DNA of 32,000 nucleotides from Chamaesiphon minutus PCC 6605 (GCF_000317145.1 NC_019697.1:2606385-2638384), one strand, 5' to 3'. Shown: positions 1,238 to 12,063, numbered from the stretch's first letter. The notes: generated from the sequence alone by a model not told the origin. Made by a program: numbers and translations.

Positions 1238-2335
1238 TTAACTAAAATTATGGGCAGATTCTCCCTTCAATTGCCCGACTAGCTCTGTCGCGATCGTCAC
1301 AGCCGCAACCATTAAGTCTGAATGCGCTTCCAATCTCCCTGGATTATCGGTGCGTGCGTCCAACTTGTCCAGCAGGGGCGACAATAAGACCCGTGCGTAA
1401 CTGCCGTAAGCCACACCATGAATGTGTTTGTTGTCAGTTGGCGGCAAAAGTGCGCGTTCCCGTAGCTTGGGGACGGTGTAATGGTTGGTACCACCTGCTA
1501 GTTGCACGTAACCTGGGAGATTGGCGGCTAAGACTTTTTCACCCAATTTAATTGCGGCATGAGTCGTCCCCGCGCCGATATCCCCGCTCATCGGCCTACC
1601 ATCGGTTTGCCAAAGGAGTGTAAAGGGGAGTGGGTGAGGATCGTAAGTGGCGGAGATCGTCGCGTGGAGCGATCGCAGATACGAGATTAATTCGTCGCTA
1701 TCGGGACAACTAATCGCCAGCAATTTAAGATGGTGTGCGGCTGGTGCCAAGACGCTCCACAACTGCCGAAAGTCATCTAAATGACCCGGCTGAGTATGAA
1801 TTTCGATCGCGTCGATACCGTCCTCCGCCGTGAGATAGGGAAGGATACTACTGGGAGTTGCCGTGCGATCGTGGGTTACAATCAGTCCTAACGGACAAAT
1901 TGGCAAACAGCGACCGCAACCATAACACCGACTATCGATGACCCCCTGCTGAGTGCTAGTAAAGGCGATCGCATCAGCCGGACAAATCCGCACGCACGGA
2001 CGCGGGCAATCGATCGGACATTGGGATGGGTTGAATTCTGCTTTCCGAAAATGTGGGTCTATGCCATCATTTAAACTCACCATCAGCCACGGGATATCTA
2101 CTATTGGATCTCCCGAATCTCGATGTGCCTGGGCTAATTTGCGAGCGGTGTGGATGCCATCTTTAGCGGCGGTAATTACCGCTAAGTCGGCAGCAACATC
2201 GATACAATCAGCTCCAGCTAATGTATAGGCAATCGCGAGATTGCGGATGGCTGGTAAGTGCCCAAAGCTAGCACCACAGATGAGTTTAAACCATGTACCC
2301 CTAGTTAATGAATTTAAGGGTGAAGGATATAGCAC
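1238..2335 (-). CDS. ldpA: LdpA-like iron-sulfur protein (light-dependent period protein, circadian input)
   Basis: 365-aa ORF. N-terminus GTWFKLICGASFGHLPAIRNLAIAYTLAGADCIDVAAD plus two ferredoxin-type cluster motifs (CPIDCPRPCVRICP and CYGCGRCLPICP). This is the layout I recognise from cyanobacterial LdpA. Confidence 0.75.
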   Translation of the reverse strand: MLYPSPLNSLTRGTWFKLICGASFGHLPAIRNLAIAYTLAGADCIDVAADLAVITAAKDGIHTARKLAQAHRDSGDPIVDIPWLMVSLNDGIDPHFRKAEFNPSQCPIDCPRPCVRICPADAIAFTSTQQGVIDSRCYGCGRCLPICPLGLIVTHDRTATPSSILPYLTAEDGIDAIEIHTQPGHLDDFRQLWSVLAPAAHHLKLLAISCPDSDELISYLRSLHATISATYDPHPLPFTLLWQTDGRPMSGDIGAGTTHAAIKLGEKVLAANLPGYVQLAGGTNHYTVPKLRERALLPPTDNKHIHGVAYGSYARVLLSPLLDKLDARTDNPGRLEAHSDLMVAAVTIATELVGQLKGESAHNFS

Positions 2336-2601
2336 TAGGACTTGGATGAATTTTTTCTGACACTATTGCTAGTGGAAATTTTTAGATATACCGAGTAAAA
2401 ACATTCATGACATTCACCCTCTCTGTCCTAAGTTTGTCAGCGTGCTGATGTATGAATTATATCTAGATTTACAGGCGCATAGCTAGGAATCGCCTGGATG
2501 TTAATTTTCTGTAATGGGATCGAGATCGGTTCAGATCTGATGAGATTATAGCTCGATCGACTGCCATAACTGGCGATCTTTGTTGGGTCGAGGTTAAATA
2601 G

Positions 2602-3219
2602 CTAACGGCGTAATAATTTGCCTTTTGCTTTTGCCGATCGAATTGCCTGATAATTACTAGTGAATAACTGAATATTTGGGACAGTAGAGTAATCCATGTC
2701 GTCAGTGAGGACTTTGACTTGTCCAGGATTAGCTTTATGGATGGCTTCTAGAATAAATAGATCGTAGCCATCCAGAGCTTGGGTTTGAAAGCGAGCTAGT
2801 GCTGCATTTGTAGTATCTTCATCAACTATCAGTTCATTAATAGGTACTGCCAAAGATTGAATCTGCATCCAGGCTGTTTGGAGTAAGTTGACAACTTTAG
2901 AACGTTCGTTGGGGTGATTATGGCGAAATTCTTTGGCTGTCAGAGACAGGTTATTTCTTTTGTTGTAAATCTCACACTCAGTTCTTTCAATGACGTGGGC
3001 TAATTCTTCCAGCAGTAGCCCACAATAGGACAAGGTTGAACCATTTTGCCGAGCGGCTTTGAGATAAGCTCCATATTCTCGAATTTTTGATGAATTTTTG
3101 GCATTAGGGTAAGTTTGCCAAATCCAGACGTTAGTATCTACTAAAAATATATCCGATTGCTGTGGGCGATCGGATAAAATATCAATTACCTGAGCTTCAA
3201 CCTTGAGATCGATCGTCAT
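2602..3219 (-). CDS. PIN-domain nuclease-like protein (last gene of the four-gene operon)
   Basis: 205-aa ORF with ATG start. The four acidic PIN positions are readable: IFLVDTNVWIW (Asp), LLLEELAHVIER (Glu), LDGYDLFILEA (Asp), VLTDDMDY (Asp). Starts 3 nt after the upstream gene. AT-rich. Confidence 0.65.
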   Translation of the reverse strand: MTIDLKVEAQVIDILSDRPQQSDIFLVDTNVWIWQTYPNAKNSSKIREYGAYLKAARQNGSTLSYCGLLLEELAHVIERTECEIYNKRNNLSLTAKEFRHNHPNERSKVVNLLQTAWMQIQSLAVPINELIVDEDTTNAALARFQTQALDGYDLFILEAIHKANPGQVKVLTDDMDYSTVPNIQLFTSNYQAIRSAKAKGKLLRR

Positions 3220-3222
3220 AAT

Positions 3223-3570
3223 CTAGAAGCTGGCGGCATATTCTTCCATAACTGTATCGACAGCTTGACGATGAGCGGGATCTGAGTAGTAAGGCTTGGC
3301 GTTCTCAATGACTTGTGACAGAACGGTTTCACCGTGAGGGGATAGATTCTCAATGATAAGTTTCTCGTTGAGAGTATCAGAGGGGATATCTTGCAAAAGC
3401 TGTCCGATAGCTACGTTGAAAAATGCTGATGCAAAAACTGTGACTCTTTCAAAGTCAAGCTCTACAGTTTGTCCCGTCTGGAGTTGGGGGTGAATCAGAT
3501 CGAAGAGTTGTTGTCCGTCGTCAAACGAAATTGCATATTGTCCGGTAATTTCATAAACGATGTAACGCAT
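3223..3570 (-). CDS. Stand-alone STAS-like protein (DUF4325-like)
   Basis: 115-aa ORF. Core GQTVELDFERVTVFASAFFNVAIGQLL resembles the STAS / anti-sigma-antagonist-like DUF4325 pattern (x-LDF-x-gV-x-x-x-sFa-x-E). A GGGGAG Shine-Dalgarno-like sequence lies ~10 nt upstream of the ATG (minus strand). Confidence 0.6.
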   Translation of the reverse strand: MRYIVYEITGQYAISFDDGQQLFDLIHPQLQTGQTVELDFERVTVFASAFFNVAIGQLLQDIPSDTLNEKLIIENLSPHGETVLSQVIENAKPYYSDPAHRQAVDTVMEEYAASF

Positions 3571-3590
3571 TGCTTTTTTCTCCCCTGTTT

Positions 3591-4481
3591 CTAAAATCGT
3601 TTCTTCACCCCGCTAGTAACCTCTGATGCTAGGCAGTAATATGACTCATCGCATTTGAAGGCTATGTTTATCAGTGTTCCCTGAAAATCGAGCGTTCTTT
3701 TTTCATATATAACTTTATTATCTTTGATGTTGACGTATCCGTCATTGCTAAATATTTTCAGATTACCTCGATTGGTCGAAACGAAGTTCTGTAATGTACT
3801 CAGCCCTATCCCTCTTTTGAAGGTTTTGATGGCGGTACTGTTTCCAGGTTGAAATGCCCATTCTAGGGCTTGGGCTGAATCTAACGATTGATTTTGGGAT
3901 AGAGATCGAACGTTGTTGGCTATGCCCTGACCAAAATCAACAATCGTTAGGTGTAGCTCTTTCTTGTTGGGGTAGTTTTGCCCGCAACTGAACACACCAA
4001 GCGAGGAGTTGCTATGTTCAAAGGCATTAGCATAGATTTCCCACACACTACCAGCGATCGCACCCTGTAAGCCAGAGCTGATATTGACCCAGCTTTTTCC
4101 TAACCAATTATTTAGCAGGTATTCCATTATAGCACATTTGTTCTGGTCTAGATCTTGGCGATAAGGAATAGAATTGCCACTCCAAGGCTCTATCCCTCGA
4201 TTGAAACCGAACAAAAATCCATTTTGAGCGAGATTAGTGTGAACTTTGGGCTGTAATGTCTCCCAGTCGAAGTTTAACTGTCCGCCTTTCGAGCGAACGT
4301 GATGACTGAGTCCACCAAGAAACGCTACCCCAAGGTGACTCAGAAAGCTGCACTTTTGAAAATCAAGGGTCAAGTCTGAGGAGGTATCAAGTTTTTGGTT
4401 TACCGTGTGCCAGATCTCTAACAAGGAGTGGCAATGCTTCGATGTGTGATAGATGACGGGGATTTCGATTTTGACAGTCAT
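3591..4481 (-). CDS. GHKL (HATPase_c, RsbW/SpoIIAB-like) ATP-binding protein with an N-terminal STAS-like domain
   Basis: 296-aa ORF. N-box-like WEIYANAFEHSN, G1-like LTIVDFGQGIANNV and G2-like KRGIGLSTLQNF motifs in the C-terminal ~170 aa. The N-terminal ~100 aa (DLTLDFQKCSFLSHLGVAFLGGL ... NLAQNGFLFGF) resembles a STAS fold. Starts 13 nt after the methyltransferase stop. Confidence 0.65.
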   Translation of the reverse strand: MTVKIEIPVIYHTSKHCHSLLEIWHTVNQKLDTSSDLTLDFQKCSFLSHLGVAFLGGLSHHVRSKGGQLNFDWETLQPKVHTNLAQNGFLFGFNRGIEPWSGNSIPYRQDLDQNKCAIMEYLLNNWLGKSWVNISSGLQGAIAGSVWEIYANAFEHSNSSLGVFSCGQNYPNKKELHLTIVDFGQGIANNVRSLSQNQSLDSAQALEWAFQPGNSTAIKTFKRGIGLSTLQNFVSTNRGNLKIFSNDGYVNIKDNKVIYEKRTLDFQGTLINIAFKCDESYYCLASEVTSGVKKRF

Positions 4482-4494
4482 GTAGTCGATCTAT

Positions 4495-7400
4495 CTAAGC
4501 GGTTTGTTGTAGCTCGGCATATTGCCAGTAGGTGATGCCTGTATCCTCACGTTTAACCAGCAGCCCAAACCATTCTAGTCGATCGAGATTTTCGCCCACC
4601 GCCTCCAGTTTCTTCTGGGTATTTTTGCCTGTAAATTGGTTGGCAATCTGCACCACCGTCCATGCGCCGCTGCTGCTGCGTAACAGGTCGCGGATGGCGG
4701 CGAGTTGGTCTTTTGGTTGACTAGGCCATTTTTGCTGTTCGACGGGGGTTGTAATGGTTTCTGCTTCATCCCCAATACCTGCCAGAGTGGTTTGGGTGGA
4801 TTGCACCTGTTCGGGGGCTTGGTATTCGGGGCGGAGCCAGCGGATGTGTCCGTTGCGTTCTTCGGCGGCGCGTTCGGCGTTGAGGGCGACGAGACGTTCG
4901 AGGATGGTTTCGGTGATTTCGGTGGTGGGTTTTCCGGCTAAGTCTTGCCAACCGTAGGCGGCGAATACGGCGGTGTCTAAGTCGTCGTGGATTTGTTTGA
5001 GAGTGGAGACGAGGGCGCGATTGTTGTAAGCTCGATCGGCATCGGTAAATGGTTCGCCAGCGCGGAGTTTTTCGAGCAGGTTGTACATTCCGGTGATGGT
5101 AATGTCGGGATGGGCGGCTTGAACTTGTTTGCGATGGCTATCTAATCGATCGCCCAATTCTCGAATCTTTTGCTTTTGTTCTGGGGTAGGATCTGGAAAT
5201 GGGAAGGGGTCGAAGCAAACCGTTTTTATATATCGAGGATCGTTTCCGATACCTAGTCTACTTCCTGCCTCTGTAGCCCATAATACGTGGATTTGGCTCG
5301 ATATAACTCCAAAATGAAATCCGTTATCCAAAGCAAAAATAACAGTGGTACTATCTGCAATAGTCCGCGACATCTCAAAAGTAAAAAACCGATGCTTAGA
5401 CGTTAAAGATGTAACGATAAATCTATTGATTATTTTGATGGCTGGCCGAAAAGTATTACGGCTCTTTTCAAAAGTCCACCAGTGTTTACGTAAAGTTGGA
5501 TTATTGTTTTGTTCTCTTTCTGGCTTGACTCTATCGATTAACCACTGAAAAATCAGTGGATACTCTTCTTGGACTTTTTCGATCTCTAATCCAAACAAGT
5601 CAATTGCGTACAGATTTCGATGTTTTTGAGTAATATCTCTGCCTGATAAAAGAGGCAAAATCACACTATCTTTTGAACCTAATTCTATATTAAGTTTATT
5701 AGCCGATTCTCGATCGACTATAAAACCTTGACCTGTTGGCTGATAGCCAACACAAGCCATTCCTGAATTAGATTTCAGGGATTTGACAGAAGCTAAATCC
5801 ACATTAACAGTTAAGCTCGGCGTTATACAACCGTAATTAAAGCTAAATAATAAAGATGCTTCCTCGTTAGAATTCTTAGCTTCAGCTATTACTTCAGCTA
5901 ATGTACCAGGTTGAATCATCGTAGTAGCGGCAGTTATCGCTATACGAATAGATGCTCCATCTTGAGCATCGATCCAAGGATGATCTGGTACAGCAAAAAA
6001 TAATTTAAGCGGATTTTTCTTTGCTTCTAAATAAGATTCAATCACTCGACGGTTATATGTTTGACTTATGGAGTTTGTAGATATAAAACCAAAACGCTTG
6101 ACTTTACTCTGGTGGGTTAATTCAGCAGCTTGATTCCACCAATACATAACTAAATCTACAGAATCAGGAATACTTTTATTAATACGTCTTAATGTTTCAG
6201 TATACCCATCTCCTAGTGATTCACGCATGTTTATTTTTCCAATAAACGGCGGATTTGAGACGATATAATCTGCCTCTGGCCATTCCGCAGCCCGCGCATT
6301 AAGATACTTGTAAATAACAACTCGATCGAGTGGATCTGGCACATCCTCACCCGTCACTGGATGCTTCATCATCTTCCCACCCCAACGCGATCGCACCTCA
6401 CCCGTTTTCGGATCTAGATCTGGCTCCCGCCCGTCATAAGCCAACACCGCATCCCGACATTCGATATTCCCGAAGGCTTGGAGTACGGGTTCTGGCGGTG
6501 CGGCATTGCCATAGCGTTTGAAATACCATTGGAGATACCCGATCCAGATTACCAGCTCTGCGATCGCGGCTGCTCTAGGATTGATTTCGATGCCCAAAAA
6601 TTGCGCTGGATTCACCTGTTCCAACACATTTAATTGGACATTTCCCGCCACATCTACCAGCCGCGCGATCGCTTCTTGCTCCAACCCCTTCAATAAATCC
6701 AGCGTCACGTACAAGAAATTCCCGGTACCGCAAGCCGGATCTAAAATTCGCACCTGACGTAATTGCGTCAAAAATTGGGCGATTTCCTGCTCTGCCTTCT
6801 TCTGCTGCAACCCCGTCGGTTCCTTCCCCTCTGGAGTGACTAAAATCCGCCGTAACTCCAACTCCACCTCATCCCACTGTTGGCGCAATGGTTCCATTAC
6901 CACCGGACGCACCAACCGCTCGACATACGATCGCGGTGTATAATGTGCCCCTAAACGGCTGCGTTCCTTCTTCTCCAACGCCCGTTCTAATAACGTCCCA
7001 AAAATCGCTGGCTCTACCTGACTCCAATCCTTCGCCGCCGCTGCGTATAAGACTTCCAACTGCTCCTTGGGCAACTCAAACGCCGTCGCATCCTCAAAGA
7101 AGCTCCCATTAAACCGCAAAATCCGCTCGAAGCCGAAGGTACCACCCGTATTCATCGTTTGCCAGAGCTGTTCGATTTCGGGCTTAAATGTGTGCGGATT
7201 GGGTATCCATCGATCGCGCAATGCCTTGGTAAATACCTCCCCCTTGAGTAATTCGACATCCTCGGCAAACATCGTAAAAATGCACCGCATCAAAAAGTTC
7301 GCCGTCGCATGAGCTTCATAACCCTGCTCCTCCAACCACCGCGACAACTTCGCCAATTCCGCCGCTACTTCCCGCGTCACCCGCGCCCGATATTTCTCAG

Positions 7401-7953
7401 GGTTGAGCGATTGCGGATCTGTGAAAATTGCCACAAACCTGTCAAATATTTCCGGTTGCGCCAGATCCTTGAGATTAATCGTCTGACGCGCCCCATAACT
7501 CCCATACTCCCCGCTAAACCCTTGCCATACCTCAAAATGCGAACCAATATCGCAAGTCAGCAAAAACGGCGGTAACGACGGCAACATCCGATTATAGGCG
7601 TAAGATTTCGCCTGGTTGAATGCCTTTTGCATCTCATCCCGATAGCCCTTCGTCCCCCGTTTGCCGTGCCCTTTGCTCGAATTAGTACTCCCCTGCTTCG
7701 CCTCAATCAGAAAGTGAGATTCCTTGTAGAAGTCCGCAAATCGCGTCGTCTCAGCCTTCTCACTGAAAAATTTGATGTTTTTGTCAAAACAGTATCGATC
7801 GCCTTCCTCACTGCCTTTTGGGGGTGGTGCTGGCACATTTAGAGCCACACACAAATCGCCAAAAAAGGTTTGATAATTTGCCCGCTCGTTCCCTTCCGAA
7901 CCCAACCATTTATTTAGGAAGTCTGCAACTCGTTGGCGATCGACATCATTCAT
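4495..7953 (-). CDS. MmeI-family (type IIL/IIG) fused restriction endonuclease - N6-adenine DNA methyltransferase - specificity protein
   Basis: 1152-aa ORF. N-terminal D-x9-E-x-K nuclease motif (FADFYKESHFLIEAK, aa 74-86), GAHYTPRSYVERLVRP linker motif, SAM motif I ILDPACGTGNFLY and catalytic motif IV VSNPPFIGK (DNA ~6243-6254). These are followed by a target-recognition region, FGVISSQIHVLWA...FDPFPFP, and a ~240-aa C-terminal extension. Confidence 0.85.
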   Translation of the reverse strand: MNDVDRQRVADFLNKWLGSEGNERANYQTFFGDLCVALNVPAPPPKGSEEGDRYCFDKNIKFFSEKAETTRFADFYKESHFLIEAKQGSTNSSKGHGKRGTKGYRDEMQKAFNQAKSYAYNRMLPSLPPFLLTCDIGSHFEVWQGFSGEYGSYGARQTINLKDLAQPEIFDRFVAIFTDPQSLNPEKYRARVTREVAAELAKLSRWLEEQGYEAHATANFLMRCIFTMFAEDVELLKGEVFTKALRDRWIPNPHTFKPEIEQLWQTMNTGGTFGFERILRFNGSFFEDATAFELPKEQLEVLYAAAAKDWSQVEPAIFGTLLERALEKKERSRLGAHYTPRSYVERLVRPVVMEPLRQQWDEVELELRRILVTPEGKEPTGLQQKKAEQEIAQFLTQLRQVRILDPACGTGNFLYVTLDLLKGLEQEAIARLVDVAGNVQLNVLEQVNPAQFLGIEINPRAAAIAELVIWIGYLQWYFKRYGNAAPPEPVLQAFGNIECRDAVLAYDGREPDLDPKTGEVRSRWGGKMMKHPVTGEDVPDPLDRVVIYKYLNARAAEWPEADYIVSNPPFIGKINMRESLGDGYTETLRRINKSIPDSVDLVMYWWNQAAELTHQSKVKRFGFISTNSISQTYNRRVIESYLEAKKNPLKLFFAVPDHPWIDAQDGASIRIAITAATTMIQPGTLAEVIAEAKNSNEEASLLFSFNYGCITPSLTVNVDLASVKSLKSNSGMACVGYQPTGQGFIVDRESANKLNIELGSKDSVILPLLSGRDITQKHRNLYAIDLFGLEIEKVQEEYPLIFQWLIDRVKPEREQNNNPTLRKHWWTFEKSRNTFRPAIKIINRFIVTSLTSKHRFFTFEMSRTIADSTTVIFALDNGFHFGVISSQIHVLWATEAGSRLGIGNDPRYIKTVCFDPFPFPDPTPEQKQKIRELGDRLDSHRKQVQAAHPDITITGMYNLLEKLRAGEPFTDADRAYNNRALVSTLKQIHDDLDTAVFAAYGWQDLAGKPTTEITETILERLVALNAERAAEERNGHIRWLRPEYQAPEQVQSTQTTLAGIGDEAETITTPVEQQKWPSQPKDQLAAIRDLLRSSSGAWTVVQIANQFTGKNTQKKLEAVGENLDRLEWFGLLVKREDTGITYWQYAELQQTA

Positions 7954-7992
7954 GCAAGTTCGAGCCTAGTGAAAAAGGGGTCTAGCTGAGAT

Positions 7993-8020
7993 ATCTTACC
8001 TTTAAGTAACTTAGATTGAA
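7993..8020 (-). promoter_or_regulatory. Candidate sigma70-type promoter of the four-gene operon (TTCAAT-N16-TAAGAT on the minus strand)
   Basis: Minus strand reads GCTTTCAATCTAAGTTACTTAAAGGTAAGATAT. The -35-like hexamer is at 8015-8020 and the -10-like hexamer at 7993-7998, ~40 nt upstream of the ATG at 7953. Sequence pattern only. Confidence 0.25.
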
Positions 8021-8092
8021 AGCGATCGATAATTTTTCGATAAGTAGCTGGGCGCAAATATTTATTAGATGGAGATTGCCAGAAACCTATGT

Positions 8093-8109
8093 GGTGGGCA
8101 GTGCCCACC
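8093..8109. other. 17-nt near-perfect palindrome GGTGGGCA-G-TGCCCACC
   Basis: 8-nt arms around a single central base, located between the arsR-family stop (8178) and the operon promoter region. It could be a hairpin or a protein-binding site. Confidence 0.4.
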
Positions 8110-8177
8110 CTACTACTGACTTGTCGCAAATTTGGTCGAGGATGGAGACGATCGATTATTGCAAGCTCGATCGATAT

Positions 8178-8492
8178 CTATGCCAGAGTATTAATTGGCG
8201 CGTGCAAAACTACTGCTAATAATCCTGGAAATAGTCTGTTGAGATCGTCAGAGCGGAGGGTGTTGATATGTTGAGTACCTTCTTTGCGGGTGAATACCAG
8301 TCCCGATTCGCGCAAAATCTTGAAATGATGGGACATGGTGGATTTAGCAACAGCGCAGTCTAGATCCGAGCAAGTTAATTCCCCCGTCTGGGCTAGTCGG
8401 TGGACGATCTGCAATCGCACGGGATCGCCTAATGCGTATAGCACGCCGACAAGAGTAATATCTTCAGCTTGGGGATGATAGAAGGGTCGCAT
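8178..8492 (-). CDS. ArsR/SmtB-family winged-helix transcriptional regulator
   Basis: 104-aa ORF. LYALGDPVRLQIVHRLAQTGELTCSDL...STMSHHFKILRESGLV is the typical ArsR-family HTH region. Divergent from the oxidoreductase gene at 8730. Confidence 0.8.
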   Translation of the reverse strand: MRPFYHPQAEDITLVGVLYALGDPVRLQIVHRLAQTGELTCSDLDCAVAKSTMSHHFKILRESGLVFTRKEGTQHINTLRSDDLNRLFPGLLAVVLHAPINTLA

Positions 8493-8505
8493 GGTATGGA
8501 GATAG

Positions 8506-8526
8506 AGCGGGGAGCGGGGAGCGGGG
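8506..8526. repeat. Tandem heptamer AGCGGGG x3 (CCCCGCT x3 in the arsR-family leader)
   Basis: Three exact tandem units at 8506-8512, 8513-8519 and 8520-8526, followed by GG. They lie 14-36 nt upstream of the minus-strand ATG at 8492. Confidence 0.9.
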
Positions 8527-8658
8527 GGAAGAGATGATTTGTCCGATATTCAAGAAATTCTCCAAAAGAGACCTTCAGGATGATGTCTCCTTTTGGTTCA
8601 AAACTAACATCGACACTGCCCTACTTGCATTATGCCATGTAAGTTGATATAGTTTGTT

Positions 8659-8685
8659 AATTCGGGAATATCGAACTACCGAATT
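8659..8685. promoter_or_regulatory. Inverted repeat AATTCGG-N13-CCGAATT, candidate operator in the divergent arsR-family / oxidoreductase intergenic region
   Basis: 7-nt perfect arms at 8659-8665 and 8679-8685, 45 nt upstream of the ATG at 8730. No binding data. Confidence 0.25.
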
Positions 8686-8729
8686 TACTACAGCAGACTA
8701 ATCCAGCTCTTCATTAATTTAGTTAGCTT

Positions 8730-9806
8730 ATGACATTGACCCATCTATTTACACCGCTGAAAATGGGAGCTTTGACTCTCCCCAATCGCATTCTGATGGC
8801 ACCATTGACTCGCTGTCGGGCAGACAAAGACCACGTACCGACAGCTCTAATGGCCGAACACTACAGCCAACGGGCGAGTGCGGGATTAGTAATTGCCGAA
8901 GCCACTGCGGCGATGGCGGGTTGCTCGTCATTTTGGACGGAGCCAGGGATTTATAATGACGCGCAAGTAGCTGGCTGGAAACAAGTCACCGACGCAGTTC
9001 ACGCCAAAGGCGGTCAGATCGTGCTCCAAATCTGGCATGGCGGGCGATCTTGCCATCCGCTAATGAATGATGGCGCAATTCCAGTGGCTCCGAGTGCGAT
9101 TCCGATTACCAATGATGAAATTCATACACCCAACGGCAAAGTCGCACACGTAACGCCCCGCGCGTTGGAAGATGCCGAAATTCCGACGATTATTGCTGCC
9201 TTTAAAGCAGCGGCGGTAAATGCTAAAGCAGCAGGATTCGACGGTGTAGAAATCCACGGCGCGAATGGTTATTTATTAGACGAATTTTTGCGCGATGGCT
9301 CGAACCACCGCAGCGGTGCTTATGGTGGTGCTGTCGAAAATCGCGCTCGGTTGTTGCTAGAAGTACTAGCGGCGACGAGTGATGTTTGGGGTAGCGATCG
9401 AGTAGGCGTCAGAGTTTCGCCGCTCAATAGCTACAATAGTATGAAAGACAGCGATCCGATCGCCACTTACAGTTGGTTGGCGAATCGACTCAATGACTAC
9501 AATCTTGCCTATCTCCACGTCATGCGCGCCGATTTCTTGGGCGAACAACAGGGCGATGTGATGACGCCAATGCGATCGATCTATCGCGGTACGATTATCG
9601 GCAATATGGGCTATAGTGCCGAGGAAGCCGAAGCGGCGATCGCGGATGGGAAGCTAGATGCAGTGGCTTTTGGGACATCGTTCTTGGCTAATCCAGATCT
9701 GCCGACACGGTTTGCCAAAAATGCGCCACTGAATGCGCCAGACCCTTCTAAATTCTATTCTTCAGGTGCTGAAGGTTATACAGATTATCCCTACTTAGCG
9801 GCCTAA
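8730..9806 (+). CDS. Old Yellow Enzyme family NADH:flavin oxidoreductase / alkene (N-ethylmaleimide-type) reductase
   Basis: 358-aa ORF. LFTPLKMGALTLPNRILMAPLTRCRA N-terminus, VLQIWHGGR and GVEIHGANGYLLDEFL are canonical OYE motifs. Confidence 0.85.
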   Translation: MTLTHLFTPLKMGALTLPNRILMAPLTRCRADKDHVPTALMAEHYSQRASAGLVIAEATAAMAGCSSFWTEPGIYNDAQVAGWKQVTDAVHAKGGQIVLQIWHGGRSCHPLMNDGAIPVAPSAIPITNDEIHTPNGKVAHVTPRALEDAEIPTIIAAFKAAAVNAKAAGFDGVEIHGANGYLLDEFLRDGSNHRSGAYGGAVENRARLLLEVLAATSDVWGSDRVGVRVSPLNSYNSMKDSDPIATYSWLANRLNDYNLAYLHVMRADFLGEQQGDVMTPMRSIYRGTIIGNMGYSAEEAEAAIADGKLDAVAFGTSFLANPDLPTRFAKNAPLNAPDPSKFYSSGAEGYTDYPYLAA

Positions 9807-9990: not shown

Positions 9991-12063
9991 ATGCTGCCCC
10001 AACATCGCTGGCAAATAGCACCAAGCAATCGTTCCCAGGCTGCCAAATTAGCTGCGGGAATTACGCTTACAGATGGAGAAGCGACATCGCCATTGCTGGC
10101 GCAGGTATTGATAAATCGCGGGATTGAGACAGTCGAGCAAGCCGAGTTGTTTATCGATCCAGAGACGGCGGTACTACCTTCGCCATTGACGGAATTTCCC
10201 GATTTGGAAATTAGTCTGGATATCTTGGTGGACGCGATCGAAAATAAGTCTAAGATTGCGATTTGTGGGGACTACGATGCGGATGGCATGACTAGTACCG
10301 CCCTACTTTTGCGCGCACTCTCGGCTTTGGGTGCGGATGTAGATTATGCAATTCCCAGTCGGATGTCGGATGGGTATGGGATTAATAAGCGGATTGTGGA
10401 GGAGTTTCATGCTGAAGGGGTGAAACTGATTATCACGGTGGATAATGGCATCTCGGCAGTTGCCGCGATCGCTAGAGCGGTAGAATTGGGCTTACAGGTG
10501 ATTATCACGGATCACCACGATCTACCCCAAGAATTACCGCCAGCACAGGCGATTCTCAATCCGAAACTAATTGCCGAGTCATCGGTTTATCGTGCGATCG
10601 CGGGTGTGGGAGTTGCTTATCTATTGGCTTTAGAATTAGCTCAGCGGCTAGCAAAACCATCTTTAAGCGATGAGCTATTAGAGTTATTTACATTAGGTAC
10701 GATCGCCGATTTAGCACCACTGACAGGAATCAATCGGCGGTTGGTCAAACAGGGTTTACAACTATTGCCAAAGTCGCAAGTTGTTGGCATTCAAGCCTTA
10801 ATTGAAATGTCTGGAACTCAAGGGGGCACGACGGCAAAAAGTATGGCGATGAAGCCAGAAGATATCGGGTTTAGATTGGGGCCGAGGATTAATGCGATCG
10901 GGAGAATTGACGATCCGCAGATTATTATTAATTTACTCACTACTGAAGATATGGGTGTCGCTCTTGCTAGGGCGATTCAATGCGAACAAGTTAATAAACA
11001 ACGCCAAGATATGTGCGCGCGGATCGAACAAGAAGCGATCGATCTGATTGCAACTGGCAATTATAATCTCAAACAAAATCGCGTGCTGGTTATCGTCCAT
11101 CCTGGCTGGCATCACGGCGTCATTGGCATCGTCGCCTCGCGATTAGTCGAACGCTATGGCGTTCCGGTATTTATTGGAACCAATGAGGACGAGCATCCGC
11201 TTGGTGAAACGCACGCTGTAGGCGTTGGCGAAGCCTCTCCGAAGGAGATACGAAGCGAGACGTGTCGCCAGACGGAAACCTCAGCGCGATTTCATCCGCA
11301 CATTCGCGGTTCGGCGCGCAGCATTCCAGAGTTTAATGTGTTTAACGCTCTAGAATACTGTCACGATCTGTTGGGTAAATACGGCGGACATCGCGCAGCA
11401 GGGGGCTTTTCGATGCCAACTGAGAATCTAGAGAAATTTCAACATAGATTGAGCGAATTTGCCCATAAATGCTTAGAAATCGAACATCTCAAGCATTTAG
11501 TCAAAATTGATGCCGAGGCCGATCTAGCAGCCATTAACATGTCGCTGTACGAACAGATCGACGCGATTCATCCCTGTGGAATGGAGAATCCCGATCCGGT
11601 ATTTTGGACGGCAAATGTCCGCGTCATCGAGCAAAAAATTGTCGGCAAAGGACATCTCAAATTTACCGTCAATACGCCAGAATTTCCCCAGGGAATTAAA
11701 GCGATCGCGTGGCGATTTGGCGATTATTTTCCATTACCGCGCTATTTAGATATTGCTTACAAACTCAAAGAAAATAACTGGAAAGATTCACGCGCGATCG
11801 AGTTAGAAATTGTCAGCGTGCGCTTACCAGTTGCCAGTAAAACTTATCAGTTTAATTATCAAGAGCGAGATTATAATTGCAGTATGTCTCCTGACAAAGA
11901 GCGACTGACGATTGTCAATGCTCAAGGCCAAGCTTTAGTAATAAATAAGGGTCACAAGGTTGCGGAGTTAATTGGGGCGCAGGAAATTAAGTCGATCGAT
12001 ATTACTAAGCCTTATTATTTTAAATTGATTAAAACTGCAATGCAAGTATTGCAAATTAATTAA
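9991..12063 (+). CDS. recJ: Single-stranded-DNA-specific exonuclease RecJ
   Basis: 690-aa ORF. DHH-family motifs ICGDYDADGMTS, ITVDNG, IITDHH and DHHA1 motifs IRGSARSI and GGHRAAGGFSM. Confidence 0.9.
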   Translation: MLPQHRWQIAPSNRSQAAKLAAGITLTDGEATSPLLAQVLINRGIETVEQAELFIDPETAVLPSPLTEFPDLEISLDILVDAIENKSKIAICGDYDADGMTSTALLLRALSALGADVDYAIPSRMSDGYGINKRIVEEFHAEGVKLIITVDNGISAVAAIARAVELGLQVIITDHHDLPQELPPAQAILNPKLIAESSVYRAIAGVGVAYLLALELAQRLAKPSLSDELLELFTLGTIADLAPLTGINRRLVKQGLQLLPKSQVVGIQALIEMSGTQGGTTAKSMAMKPEDIGFRLGPRINAIGRIDDPQIIINLLTTEDMGVALARAIQCEQVNKQRQDMCARIEQEAIDLIATGNYNLKQNRVLVIVHPGWHHGVIGIVASRLVERYGVPVFIGTNEDEHPLGETHAVGVGEASPKEIRSETCRQTETSARFHPHIRGSARSIPEFNVFNALEYCHDLLGKYGGHRAAGGFSMPTENLEKFQHRLSEFAHKCLEIEHLKHLVKIDAEADLAAINMSLYEQIDAIHPCGMENPDPVFWTANVRVIEQKIVGKGHLKFTVNTPEFPQGIKAIAWRFGDYFPLPRYLDIAYKLKENNWKDSRAIELEIVSVRLPVASKTYQFNYQERDYNCSMSPDKERLTIVNAQGQALVINKGHKVAELIGAQEIKSIDITKPYYFKLIKTAMQVLQIN
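11194..11299 (+). mobile_element. MITE-like 99-bp in-frame insertion inside recJ, bounded by the 7-bp direct repeat CATCCGC
   Basis: CATCCGC at 11194-11200 and again at 11293-11299, exactly 99 nt apart. The intervening segment contains the dispersed hairpin core GCGTTGGCGAAGCCTCTCCGAAGGAGATACG (11222-11252). Removing one unit gives ...EDEHPHIRGSARS... Confidence 0.6.

Follow-up and report, generated by a model that had tools for sequence, protein, structure and literature searches.

MmeI-family enzymes methylate one strand of their target site and cut unmodified DNA about 20 bp away, at about 20/18 nt from the site, and specificity-domain swapping is known in this family. In canonical VapBC toxin–antitoxin systems, the antitoxin both autoregulates its own operon and contains a DNA-binding domain, of the AbrB, RHH, Phd or HTH type. 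A different arrangement is found in EcoprrI-PrrC/RloC, in which an anticodon nuclease is embedded in a type I restriction–modification (R-M) locus and serves as an RNA-cleaving suicide effector in a second line of defence; PrrC is kept inactive by binding to the R-M enzyme, and is freed by a phage anti-restriction peptide. The present analysis concerns a locus of Chamaesiphon minutus PCC 6605: at positions 2602–7953 of a window of 32,000 nucleotides (GCF_000317145.1, NC_019697.1:2606385–2638384), which is the whole stretch of DNA that was analysed and from the first letter of which all positions are counted, a gene for an MmeI-type enzyme is followed by three genes that, judged by sequence homology, constitute a vapKSC operon.

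The vapKSC operon, described by Chambers, Rani, Min, Villa, and Corbett (EMBO J 2026; bioRxiv February 2026; PMC13373217; PDB 9Z7O), consists of three genes encoding a STAS-GHKL kinase that resembles CapK, a STAS protein that carries a short region at its C-terminus, and a PIN nuclease that resembles VapC. The same study reported 289 vapKSC instances and the crystal structure of the VapS2–VapC2 complex, and showed that VapS neutralises the toxicity of VapC (PMC13373217). By itself, Escherichia vapKSC protects against phage Bas42 by about 2 logs, and this protection is abolished by the mutations VapC D28A, VapS S48A, and VapK F54A; VapS S48A/E are both among the mutations that abolish function (PMC13373217). 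The coupling of PIN and DUF4325 genes had already been recorded in 2017 as the PIN subfamily PIN.4 (Matelska et al., PMC5499597). Among 443 cases of the related capKS genes, 88 are found directly downstream of an R-M system, and the authors propose that DNA damage generated by restriction activates the kinase (PMC13373217); this adjacency is reported there for capKS, not for vapKSC.

The C. minutus block is very probably a mobile cassette that joins two known and autonomous modules, the MmeI-type enzyme and VapKSC. An earlier reading of the sequence, the original prediction, had presented the four genes as a candidate undescribed defence module. The three downstream genes instead belong to a named system: Dataset EV3 of PMC13373217 lists C. 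minutus PCC 6605 with consecutive gene IDs for VapK, VapS, and VapC and with the PADLOC neighbour 'RM_type_IIG', so that this exact locus, including its MmeI-type neighbour, is already catalogued, and the trio is not a new system. For the comparison with other genomes, 80 vapKSC loci from different species and 31 MmeI-orthologue loci, searched with the window proteins, were used; individual loci are designated by L numbers.

Gene Order and Transcription

The four genes follow one another on the minus strand.

4495–7953, minus strand: MmeI-family gene, 1152 amino acids (AFY93576/WP_015159723; public name 'DNA methyltransferase')
3591–4481, minus strand: vapK, 296 amino acids (AFY93575), STAS plus GHKL Ser/Thr kinase
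3223–3570, minus strand: vapS, 115 amino acids, STAS-domain antitoxin whose C-terminus has a short helix region
2602–3219, minus strand: vapC, 205 amino acids (AFY93573), PIN-domain nuclease toxin

The gaps between these consecutive open reading frames, from the MmeI gene through vapK and vapS to vapC, measure 13, 20, and 3 nt, exactly as had been claimed for four co-directional genes, and a single transcript is plausible judging from this spacing. A scan of positions 2300–8800 for promoter and terminator consensus sequences returned counts at the level of shuffled sequence, with no minus-strand site between the MmeI gene and vapK, and is uninformative on operon structure. By exact-sequence look-up, the proteins of the block correspond to C. 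minutus PCC 6605 AFY93573–AFY93576, and the adjacent LdpA corresponds to AFY93572. The NCBI and UniProt entries name VapK a 'chemotaxis protein (histidine kinase-like)' and VapC a 'hypothetical protein / PIN domain-containing protein', and both public names are outdated.

Identification of VapK, VapS, and VapC

The assignment of the trio to VapKSC, a three-component toxin–antitoxin and abortive-infection system, is based on homology to the characterised proteins and on the residues that are conserved in them. VapK shares 40% identity over 262 amino acids with the VapK of Escherichia sp. E4736 (E = 3e-68, BLASTP), the sequence of which was read from the AlphaFold 3 (AF3) model file of PMC13373217; a search against PDB sequences gave no match, as there is no solved VapK structure. 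Phe46 aligns with Phe54 of E. coli VapK and is a phenylalanine in 76 of 78 sequences, with a gap in the remaining two, and the N box (E148/N152), the G1 motif (D182-F-G-x-G), and the G2 motif (G224-x-G-L) are at least 97% conserved among 77–78 related sequences. In the AlphaFold 2 (AF2) model of VapK (predicted local distance difference test score of 87), an alpha/beta domain occupies the N-terminus and a Bergerat-fold domain comes after it. When this model was searched with Foldseek, the PDB matches were GHKL ATPase domains, headed by GyrB/Topo VI-B at a low TM score for a two-domain query; the modelled structure supports the GHKL fold, does not separate a kinase from an ATPase, and has GyrB-type rather than SpoIIAB-type folds at the top of its matches. 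VapK also matches the first 275 positions of the 1750-position DISARM DrmA model (PADLOC PDLC02567, E = 2e-10), which suggests that some DrmA proteins possess a STAS-GHKL sensor head of the VapK/CapK kind.

The 115-residue protein matches Pfam DUF4325 (E = 2e-20), and its residues 4–112 align with chain A of PDB 9Z7O, 'Escherichia VapS' (E = 1e-17, phmmer). Ser48, the candidate phospho-acceptor, sits in an FAS(A/P)FFN motif, and this position is occupied by serine in 71, threonine in 6, and alanine in 1 of 78 sequences. The third protein aligns over residues 8–203 with chain C of the same structure, 'Escherichia VapC' (E = 7e-34, phmmer). Its four acidic residues (D28, E72, D150, and D174), which had been pointed out as an intact PIN set, are all present and are at least 97% conserved in 74–77 relatives.

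Profile libraries give a less uniform picture of these proteins. Pfam bears out DUF4325 strongly, and the other matches stay below the gathering score: HATPase_c (22.6 bits) and STAS_2 (21.4 bits) in VapK, and PIN (15.6 bits, E = 0.025) in VapC. The proposed GHKL, STAS, and PIN assignments nevertheless hold, DUF4325 through Pfam and the others through the characterised homologues and the GHKL-fold matches of the AF2 model. PADLOC v2.0 recognises the MmeI protein as REase_MTase_IIG and contains no model matching VapS or VapC; VapKSC was described after this library. NCBIfam contains no model for VapK, VapS, or VapC. The partner-switching logic that the original prediction had read from the trio, with a GHKL kinase, an antagonist-like STAS substrate, and a PIN effector, is essentially the mechanism that has been shown experimentally for VapKSC (PMC13373217).

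The MmeI-Family Enzyme

The 1152-residue protein carries MmeI_N, MmeI_hel, MmeI_Mtase, and MmeI_TRD, all above the Pfam gathering score, and matches the PADLOC model REase_MTase_IIG (PDLC03627) end to end, over residues 8–1137, with 1414 bits; its match to the sequence of the MmeI crystal structure (PDB 5HR4) has an E value of 5e-44. The nuclease motif D74-x9-E84-x-K86, the S-adenosylmethionine motif I (DPACGTGNF, residue 405), and an NPPF motif at position 567 are all in place. From these domains and motifs, which agree with the single-chain type IIL enzyme of the original prediction, the protein is classified as an intact MmeI-family type IIL/IIG restriction–modification–specificity enzyme, in which one chain unites a PD-(D/E)xK nuclease at the N-terminus, a helical spacer, a gamma-class N6-adenine methyltransferase, and a target-recognition domain. 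Full-length MmeI orthologues of 1150–1153 amino acids exist. One part of the gene stands apart from the rest.

5250–6120, minus strand: hypervariable target-recognition segment, approximately residues 611–901 of the MmeI gene, GC content 0.367

Similarity to every orthologous locus is lost at approximately 6120–5250, with flanks on both sides that are 72–89% identical (blastn). The Pfam MmeI_TRD match spans residues 735–921, and the segment looks like a swapped specificity domain.

Orthologues of the enzyme contain insertions of 104–587 nt at one shared point, which corresponds to window positions 7314–7327 (approximately residue 210 of MmeI) and falls between the nuclease and helical-spacer domains. 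These insertions are located at 6626–6730 in L081, 6967–7178 in L003, 6840–7015 in L040, and 6627–7214 in L086; the L086 insert resembles a DUF559-type endonuclease, as judged by eye without a profile test.

Cassette Borders and Genomic Context

Nucleotide homology among the cassettes stops exactly at position 2602, the vapC stop codon, and the other border of the shared homology lies at 8000–8040, about 50–90 nt upstream of the MmeI start.

7954–8040, minus strand: upstream end of the shared cassette, presumed promoter region of the MmeI gene

The block is flanked by the housekeeping genes that had been named for it, ldpA (LdpA_C, E = 1e-72) and an ArsR/HTH_20 regulator gene, neither of which any other compared locus shares. 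Because the borders are shared and the flanks differ between loci, the block (approximately 8040 to 2602) is regarded as a mobile cassette, inserted among housekeeping genes where synteny breaks. In C. polymorphus, ldpA has prk and not arsR on its 5' side, and the comparison yields no clean empty site. A search for the marks of an integration site found no flanking repeats marking the borders, no tRNA, and no Rfam match. The rest of the window is housekeeping in content (an old yellow enzyme reductase, recJ, ABC transporters, glutamine synthetase, and an amidohydrolase), and the window is not a defence island.

The composition of the block differs from what the original prediction had described. 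The HIP1 octamer (GCGATCGC), of which the block was said to be nearly free, occurs at four sites (4054, 6387, 6560, and 6665), compared with 4.4 expected from the density outside the block (0.83/kb; P(X ≤ 4) = 0.55), which rules out HIP1 depletion as a sign of recent transfer or foreign origin. The block was also called AT-rich, and this applies only to the trio (GC content 0.42) and to the segment at 5250–6120 (0.367); the block overall has a GC content of 0.456 against 0.465 for the window, and the MmeI gene outside that segment reaches 0.50–0.53.

Two observations concern the surroundings of the cassette. A 62-nt stretch at 8116–8178 (minus strand), abutting the arsR stop codon, resembles MmeI codons 970–992; two direct-repeat families, D2 (72% identity) and D3 (85%), pair it with 4977–5043, and protein comparison by itself yields no significant match (E = 8). 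This stretch may be what is left of an MmeI-type gene that occupied the site earlier. At 9991–12063 (plus strand), 2 kb from the cassette, lies recJ, a single-strand DNA exonuclease gene with DHH, DHHA1, and RecJ_OB domains. RecJ acts on the kind of DNA that is proposed as the signal for VapK, and the proximity of the two is probably coincidental.

Distribution of the Two Modules

The order vapK–vapS–vapC is kept in about 77 of the 80 vapKSC loci, with median gaps of 15.5 and 2 nt, and the trio recurs as a neighbourhood mostly without an MmeI-like gene (72 of 80). An MmeI homologue or relic lies directly upstream of vapK in the eight other loci (L001–L007 and L040), which represent Chamaesiphon, Synechococcales, and Acaryochloridaceae metagenome-assembled genomes (MAGs) and form a small cyanobacterial clade, the closest one only. 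The state of the MmeI gene varies within this clade: it is full-length in L005, with 71% identity and a 19-nt gap to vapK, split near residues 154–214 in L003, internally deleted over residues 155–1097 in L004, fragmented in L040, and reduced to approximately the last 50 codons in L001 and L007. As the clade members are MAGs, some of these breaks could be assembly artefacts. In L006, an Acaryochloridaceae MAG, C-terminal MmeI fragments (residues 933–1005 and 1013–1131) are found at 1998–3281, downstream of vapC and not upstream of vapK, which could reflect a tandem arrangement, a permuted one, or an artefact of assembly.

Conversely, wherever the sequence downstream of an MmeI orthologue (42–72% identity) was available, no vapKSC followed. 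Because MmeI and vapKSC are each found without the other, the MmeI enzyme and VapKSC are two separable, autonomous modules, and the four genes are not one obligatory system. Small gene pairs behind some of the MmeI orthologues resemble toxin–antitoxin modules, as seen by sequence inspection without a profile test: a HicAB-like pair after the L096 orthologue, and a PIN-like gene with a putative antitoxin gene after the L084 orthologue.

Restriction Genes and the MmeI Tail Upstream of vapK

The adjacency of the MmeI gene and vapKSC persists at 65–71% protein identity (L005), and MmeI is not the only restriction gene that is found in this position. A type I hsdS gene is the immediate co-directional upstream gene of vapK in nine of the more distant vapKSC loci.

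hsdS directly upstream of vapK: L044, L047, L054, L057, L065, L067, L072, L075, L077

In several of the nine, hsdS and vapK either overlap, by as much as 3 nt, or are separated by up to 71 nt; L047 was noted to have a Hypoth_Ymh gene between the two. Furthermore, hsdR adjoins vapKSC in five loci (L052, L070, L071, L074, and L080), and a PLD-SNF2 protein is encoded near vapKSC in five loci, so that vapKSC is physically attached to a restriction gene in approximately one quarter of the sampled species. Our own count of the PADLOC neighbours in Dataset EV3 agrees broadly with this, at 24 RM_type_I, 5 RM_type_IIG, and 3 RM_type_HNH among the 289 instances.

Where the MmeI gene has been lost, its 3' end has remained. 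The last 90–170 nt of the gene are kept upstream of vapK in all the MmeI-less relatives (L001, L004, and L007).

4495–4663, minus strand: MmeI 3' tail, candidate internal vapKSC promoter, with TAGAAT at 4577–4572, 91 nt before the vapK ATG
MmeI tail copies in other loci: L001 181–361; L004 3558–3722; L007 9835–9978; L040 9886–10000; L081 9832–9920

The tail is present twice in L040 and in L081, the latter of which is a locus without vapKSC. The hexamer TAGAAT/TACAAT is found in all the linked and relic tails, and L082, L084, and L086, orthologues that are more diverged and unlinked, have TGGAAT/TCGAAT instead; the generic promoter scan gave no match in the tail (4495–4663). The tail may carry a promoter of vapKSC's own, a suggestion that is weakened by the relatedness of the tail sequences and the coding nature of the region, or, more broadly, it may be either a promoter or a recombination joint of the vapKSC cassette.

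Proposed Mechanism and Alternative Explanations

As the window trio is homologous to the characterised Escherichia system, the working scheme of VapKSC can be carried over to it. The MmeI-type enzyme, the motifs of which are intact, would methylate and restrict DNA. VapS is expected to hold the VapC dimer inactive in a 2:2 complex, as has been shown for the homologue, considering the identity of about 40% and the interface serine. Single-stranded DNA (ssDNA) arising from DNA damage or phage infection would then activate VapK, a step that is predicted and mutationally supported in the homologue and for which the corresponding residue, Phe46, is conserved here. Activated VapK would phosphorylate VapS Ser48 in the VapS–VapC interface, as phosphomimetic evidence in the homologue suggests, and, by analogy with the toxicity shown for the homologue, VapS would dissociate and free VapC would cleave RNA and arrest growth. 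Finally, the DNA breaks made by restriction might supply the ssDNA signal to VapK.

This last step could make the MmeI enzyme and VapKSC a functionally wired two-tier unit, in which the signal passes from breaks to ssDNA to VapK, although we consider such wiring rather doubtful. Under this two-tier view, double-strand breaks in phage DNA, or in self DNA that is under-methylated, would be resected to ssDNA, the physiological trigger of VapK, and VapC would fire only when restriction is engaged but failing. A vapKSC promoter within the final ~170 nt of the MmeI gene would account for the survival of the tail after MmeI deletion, and vapKSC behind a type I hsdS gene would represent the same design with another R-M partner, a kinase-based analogue of EcoprrI-PrrC. 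Applied by analogy, this restriction-to-kinase logic would explain the 13-nt junction most attractively, and the junction is consistent with an arrangement of front-line and back-up defences.

Several points weigh against the scheme and the coupling. We infer every biochemical step in C. minutus, as well as the link between MmeI and VapKSC, by analogy. Escherichia VapK is insoluble, and its kinase activity and activation by ssDNA rest on an AF3 model and on the F54A phenotype (PMC13373217); RNA cleavage by VapC is likewise a predicted activity, for which the evidence from the homologue is toxicity. As regards the coupling, the MmeI gene is disrupted or deleted in most assessable members of the linked clade (L001, L003, L004, L007, and L040), while vapKSC is intact in four of these MmeI-damaged loci (L001, L003, L004, and L007), L040 being the exception, and the majority of vapKSC loci lack a directly attached R-M gene.

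The same distribution bears on the opposite extreme, according to which the four genes form one integrated, obligatory, new composite system, with MmeI needing the trio or the reverse. Such a unit would fit the gaps of 13, 20, and 3 nt, an adjacency that is kept in Chamaesiphon and in a Synechococcales MAG at 65–71% identity, and common cassette borders that end exactly at the vapC stop codon. However, MmeI orthologues of 42–72% identity with available downstream sequence do without vapKSC, 72 of 80 vapKSC loci do without MmeI, vapKSC is intact beside an MmeI relic in L001, L004, and L007, and Escherichia vapKSC protects by itself (PMC13373217), so that this explanation is largely refuted by distribution and retains very little probability. 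The decay of the MmeI gene despite its linkage to vapKSC is also difficult to reconcile with the idea that vapKSC is mainly an addiction module, which would stabilise the cassette and the R-M gene through post-segregational killing rather than sense phage. Its toxin–antitoxin architecture, the presence of the cassette in different genomic contexts, with ldpA/arsR flanks shared with no other locus, and the toxin–antitoxin-like pairs seen by inspection after other MmeI orthologues (L096 and L084) speak for addiction; a dedicated kinase with a conserved residue predicted to bind ssDNA favours activation that depends on a signal, and phage protection has been shown for the Escherichia homologue (PMC13373217). 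Addiction as the main role is given only a small chance.

It is practically inconceivable that the kinase and the STAS protein represent a housekeeping switch of the RsbW/RsbV or SpoIIAB/SpoIIAA type, or a chemotaxis kinase, with an unrelated PIN gene behind them. Weak Pfam matches to HATPase_c and STAS point in this direction, as do the public names: JGI calls relatives 'anti-sigma regulatory factor (Ser/Thr protein kinase)', and NCBI calls the protein itself 'chemotaxis protein'. No sigma-factor, HPt, or CheW domain is found in or beside the block, however, and this explanation is refuted because the three genes form a conserved operon, which about 77 of 80 loci share and in which the median vapS–vapC gap is 2 nt, and because the STAS protein is homologous to VapS, which has been crystallised bound to VapC. 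The cassette of two autonomous modules remains the preferred explanation.

Assignments to other described systems were considered and rejected. An RsbW/SpoIIAB anti-sigma switch is at odds with the lack of a sigma-factor gene in or beside the block and with a conserved third gene that encodes a PIN nuclease. A canonical type II VapBC system does not apply, as the protein in the antitoxin position has a STAS/DUF4325 fold and no match to a DNA-binding domain. DISARM is represented only by the partial DrmA match of VapK and by DrmMI matches of the MmeI methyltransferase domain, with no helicase and no DrmB.

In terms of its meaning, the trio is nothing categorically new, being a catalogued VapKSC member beside a standard type IIL enzyme, and the public annotation ('chemotaxis protein', 'hypothetical protein', and 'DNA methyltransferase') is corrected. 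The remaining interest lies in the recurrent juxtaposition of R-M genes and vapKSC, in the retained MmeI tail, and in the swapped specificity domain. Among 80 species, vapKSC is recurrently found immediately 3' of two unrelated types of restriction gene (MmeI-like in 8 and type I hsdS in 9), and the locus provides a compact natural test case for whether DNA damage generated by restriction feeds an abortive-infection back-up.

Comparison with Known Systems

The window enzyme resembles MmeI (PDB 5HR4) in its four MmeI Pfam domains, its D-x9-E-x-K motif, its gamma-class N6-adenine methyltransferase motifs, and a swappable target-recognition domain. It is longer, at 1152 amino acids compared with 919 for MmeI, and has about 190 additional C-terminal residues, which are covered by the PADLOC model PDLC03627.

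The placement of an effector beside an R-M system is shared with EcoprrI-PrrC, as vapKSC recurs directly after hsdS or MmeI genes. In contrast to PrrC, VapC would be held by a STAS antitoxin and freed by a kinase, and the proteins are not homologous. CapK-CapS displays the same logic of a STAS-GHKL kinase and a STAS substrate as VapK-VapS, and is often located directly downstream of R-M genes; however, CapK has an extra N-terminal HTH domain, CapS has a winged HTH domain and acts as a transcriptional repressor, and the output is the transcription of a downstream operon, whereas that of VapKSC is the release of a nuclease.

VapBC, including PIN.4 (PMC5499597), likewise contains a VapC-like PIN nuclease toxin that is neutralised by a small protein encoded upstream. 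The VapKSC antitoxin differs in having a STAS fold without a DNA-binding domain, VapS leaves the catalytic Mg2+ in place (PMC13373217), and the toxin is released by phosphorylation, not by proteolysis.

The closest described relative is the VapKSC of Escherichia sp. E4736. The identity to the window trio is only about 40%, as measured for VapK, and the Escherichia operon has no PADLOC neighbour, whereas the window operon begins 13 nt after an MmeI-type gene; the Escherichia system has been tested experimentally, and the window trio, like any cyanobacterial copy, is known from its sequence. Both share the order vapK–vapS–vapC, the domain contents of all three proteins, and the mutationally validated residues, and they are alike in size, with a 116-residue VapS and a 203-residue VapC chain in 9Z7O corresponding to 115 and 205 amino acids in the window.

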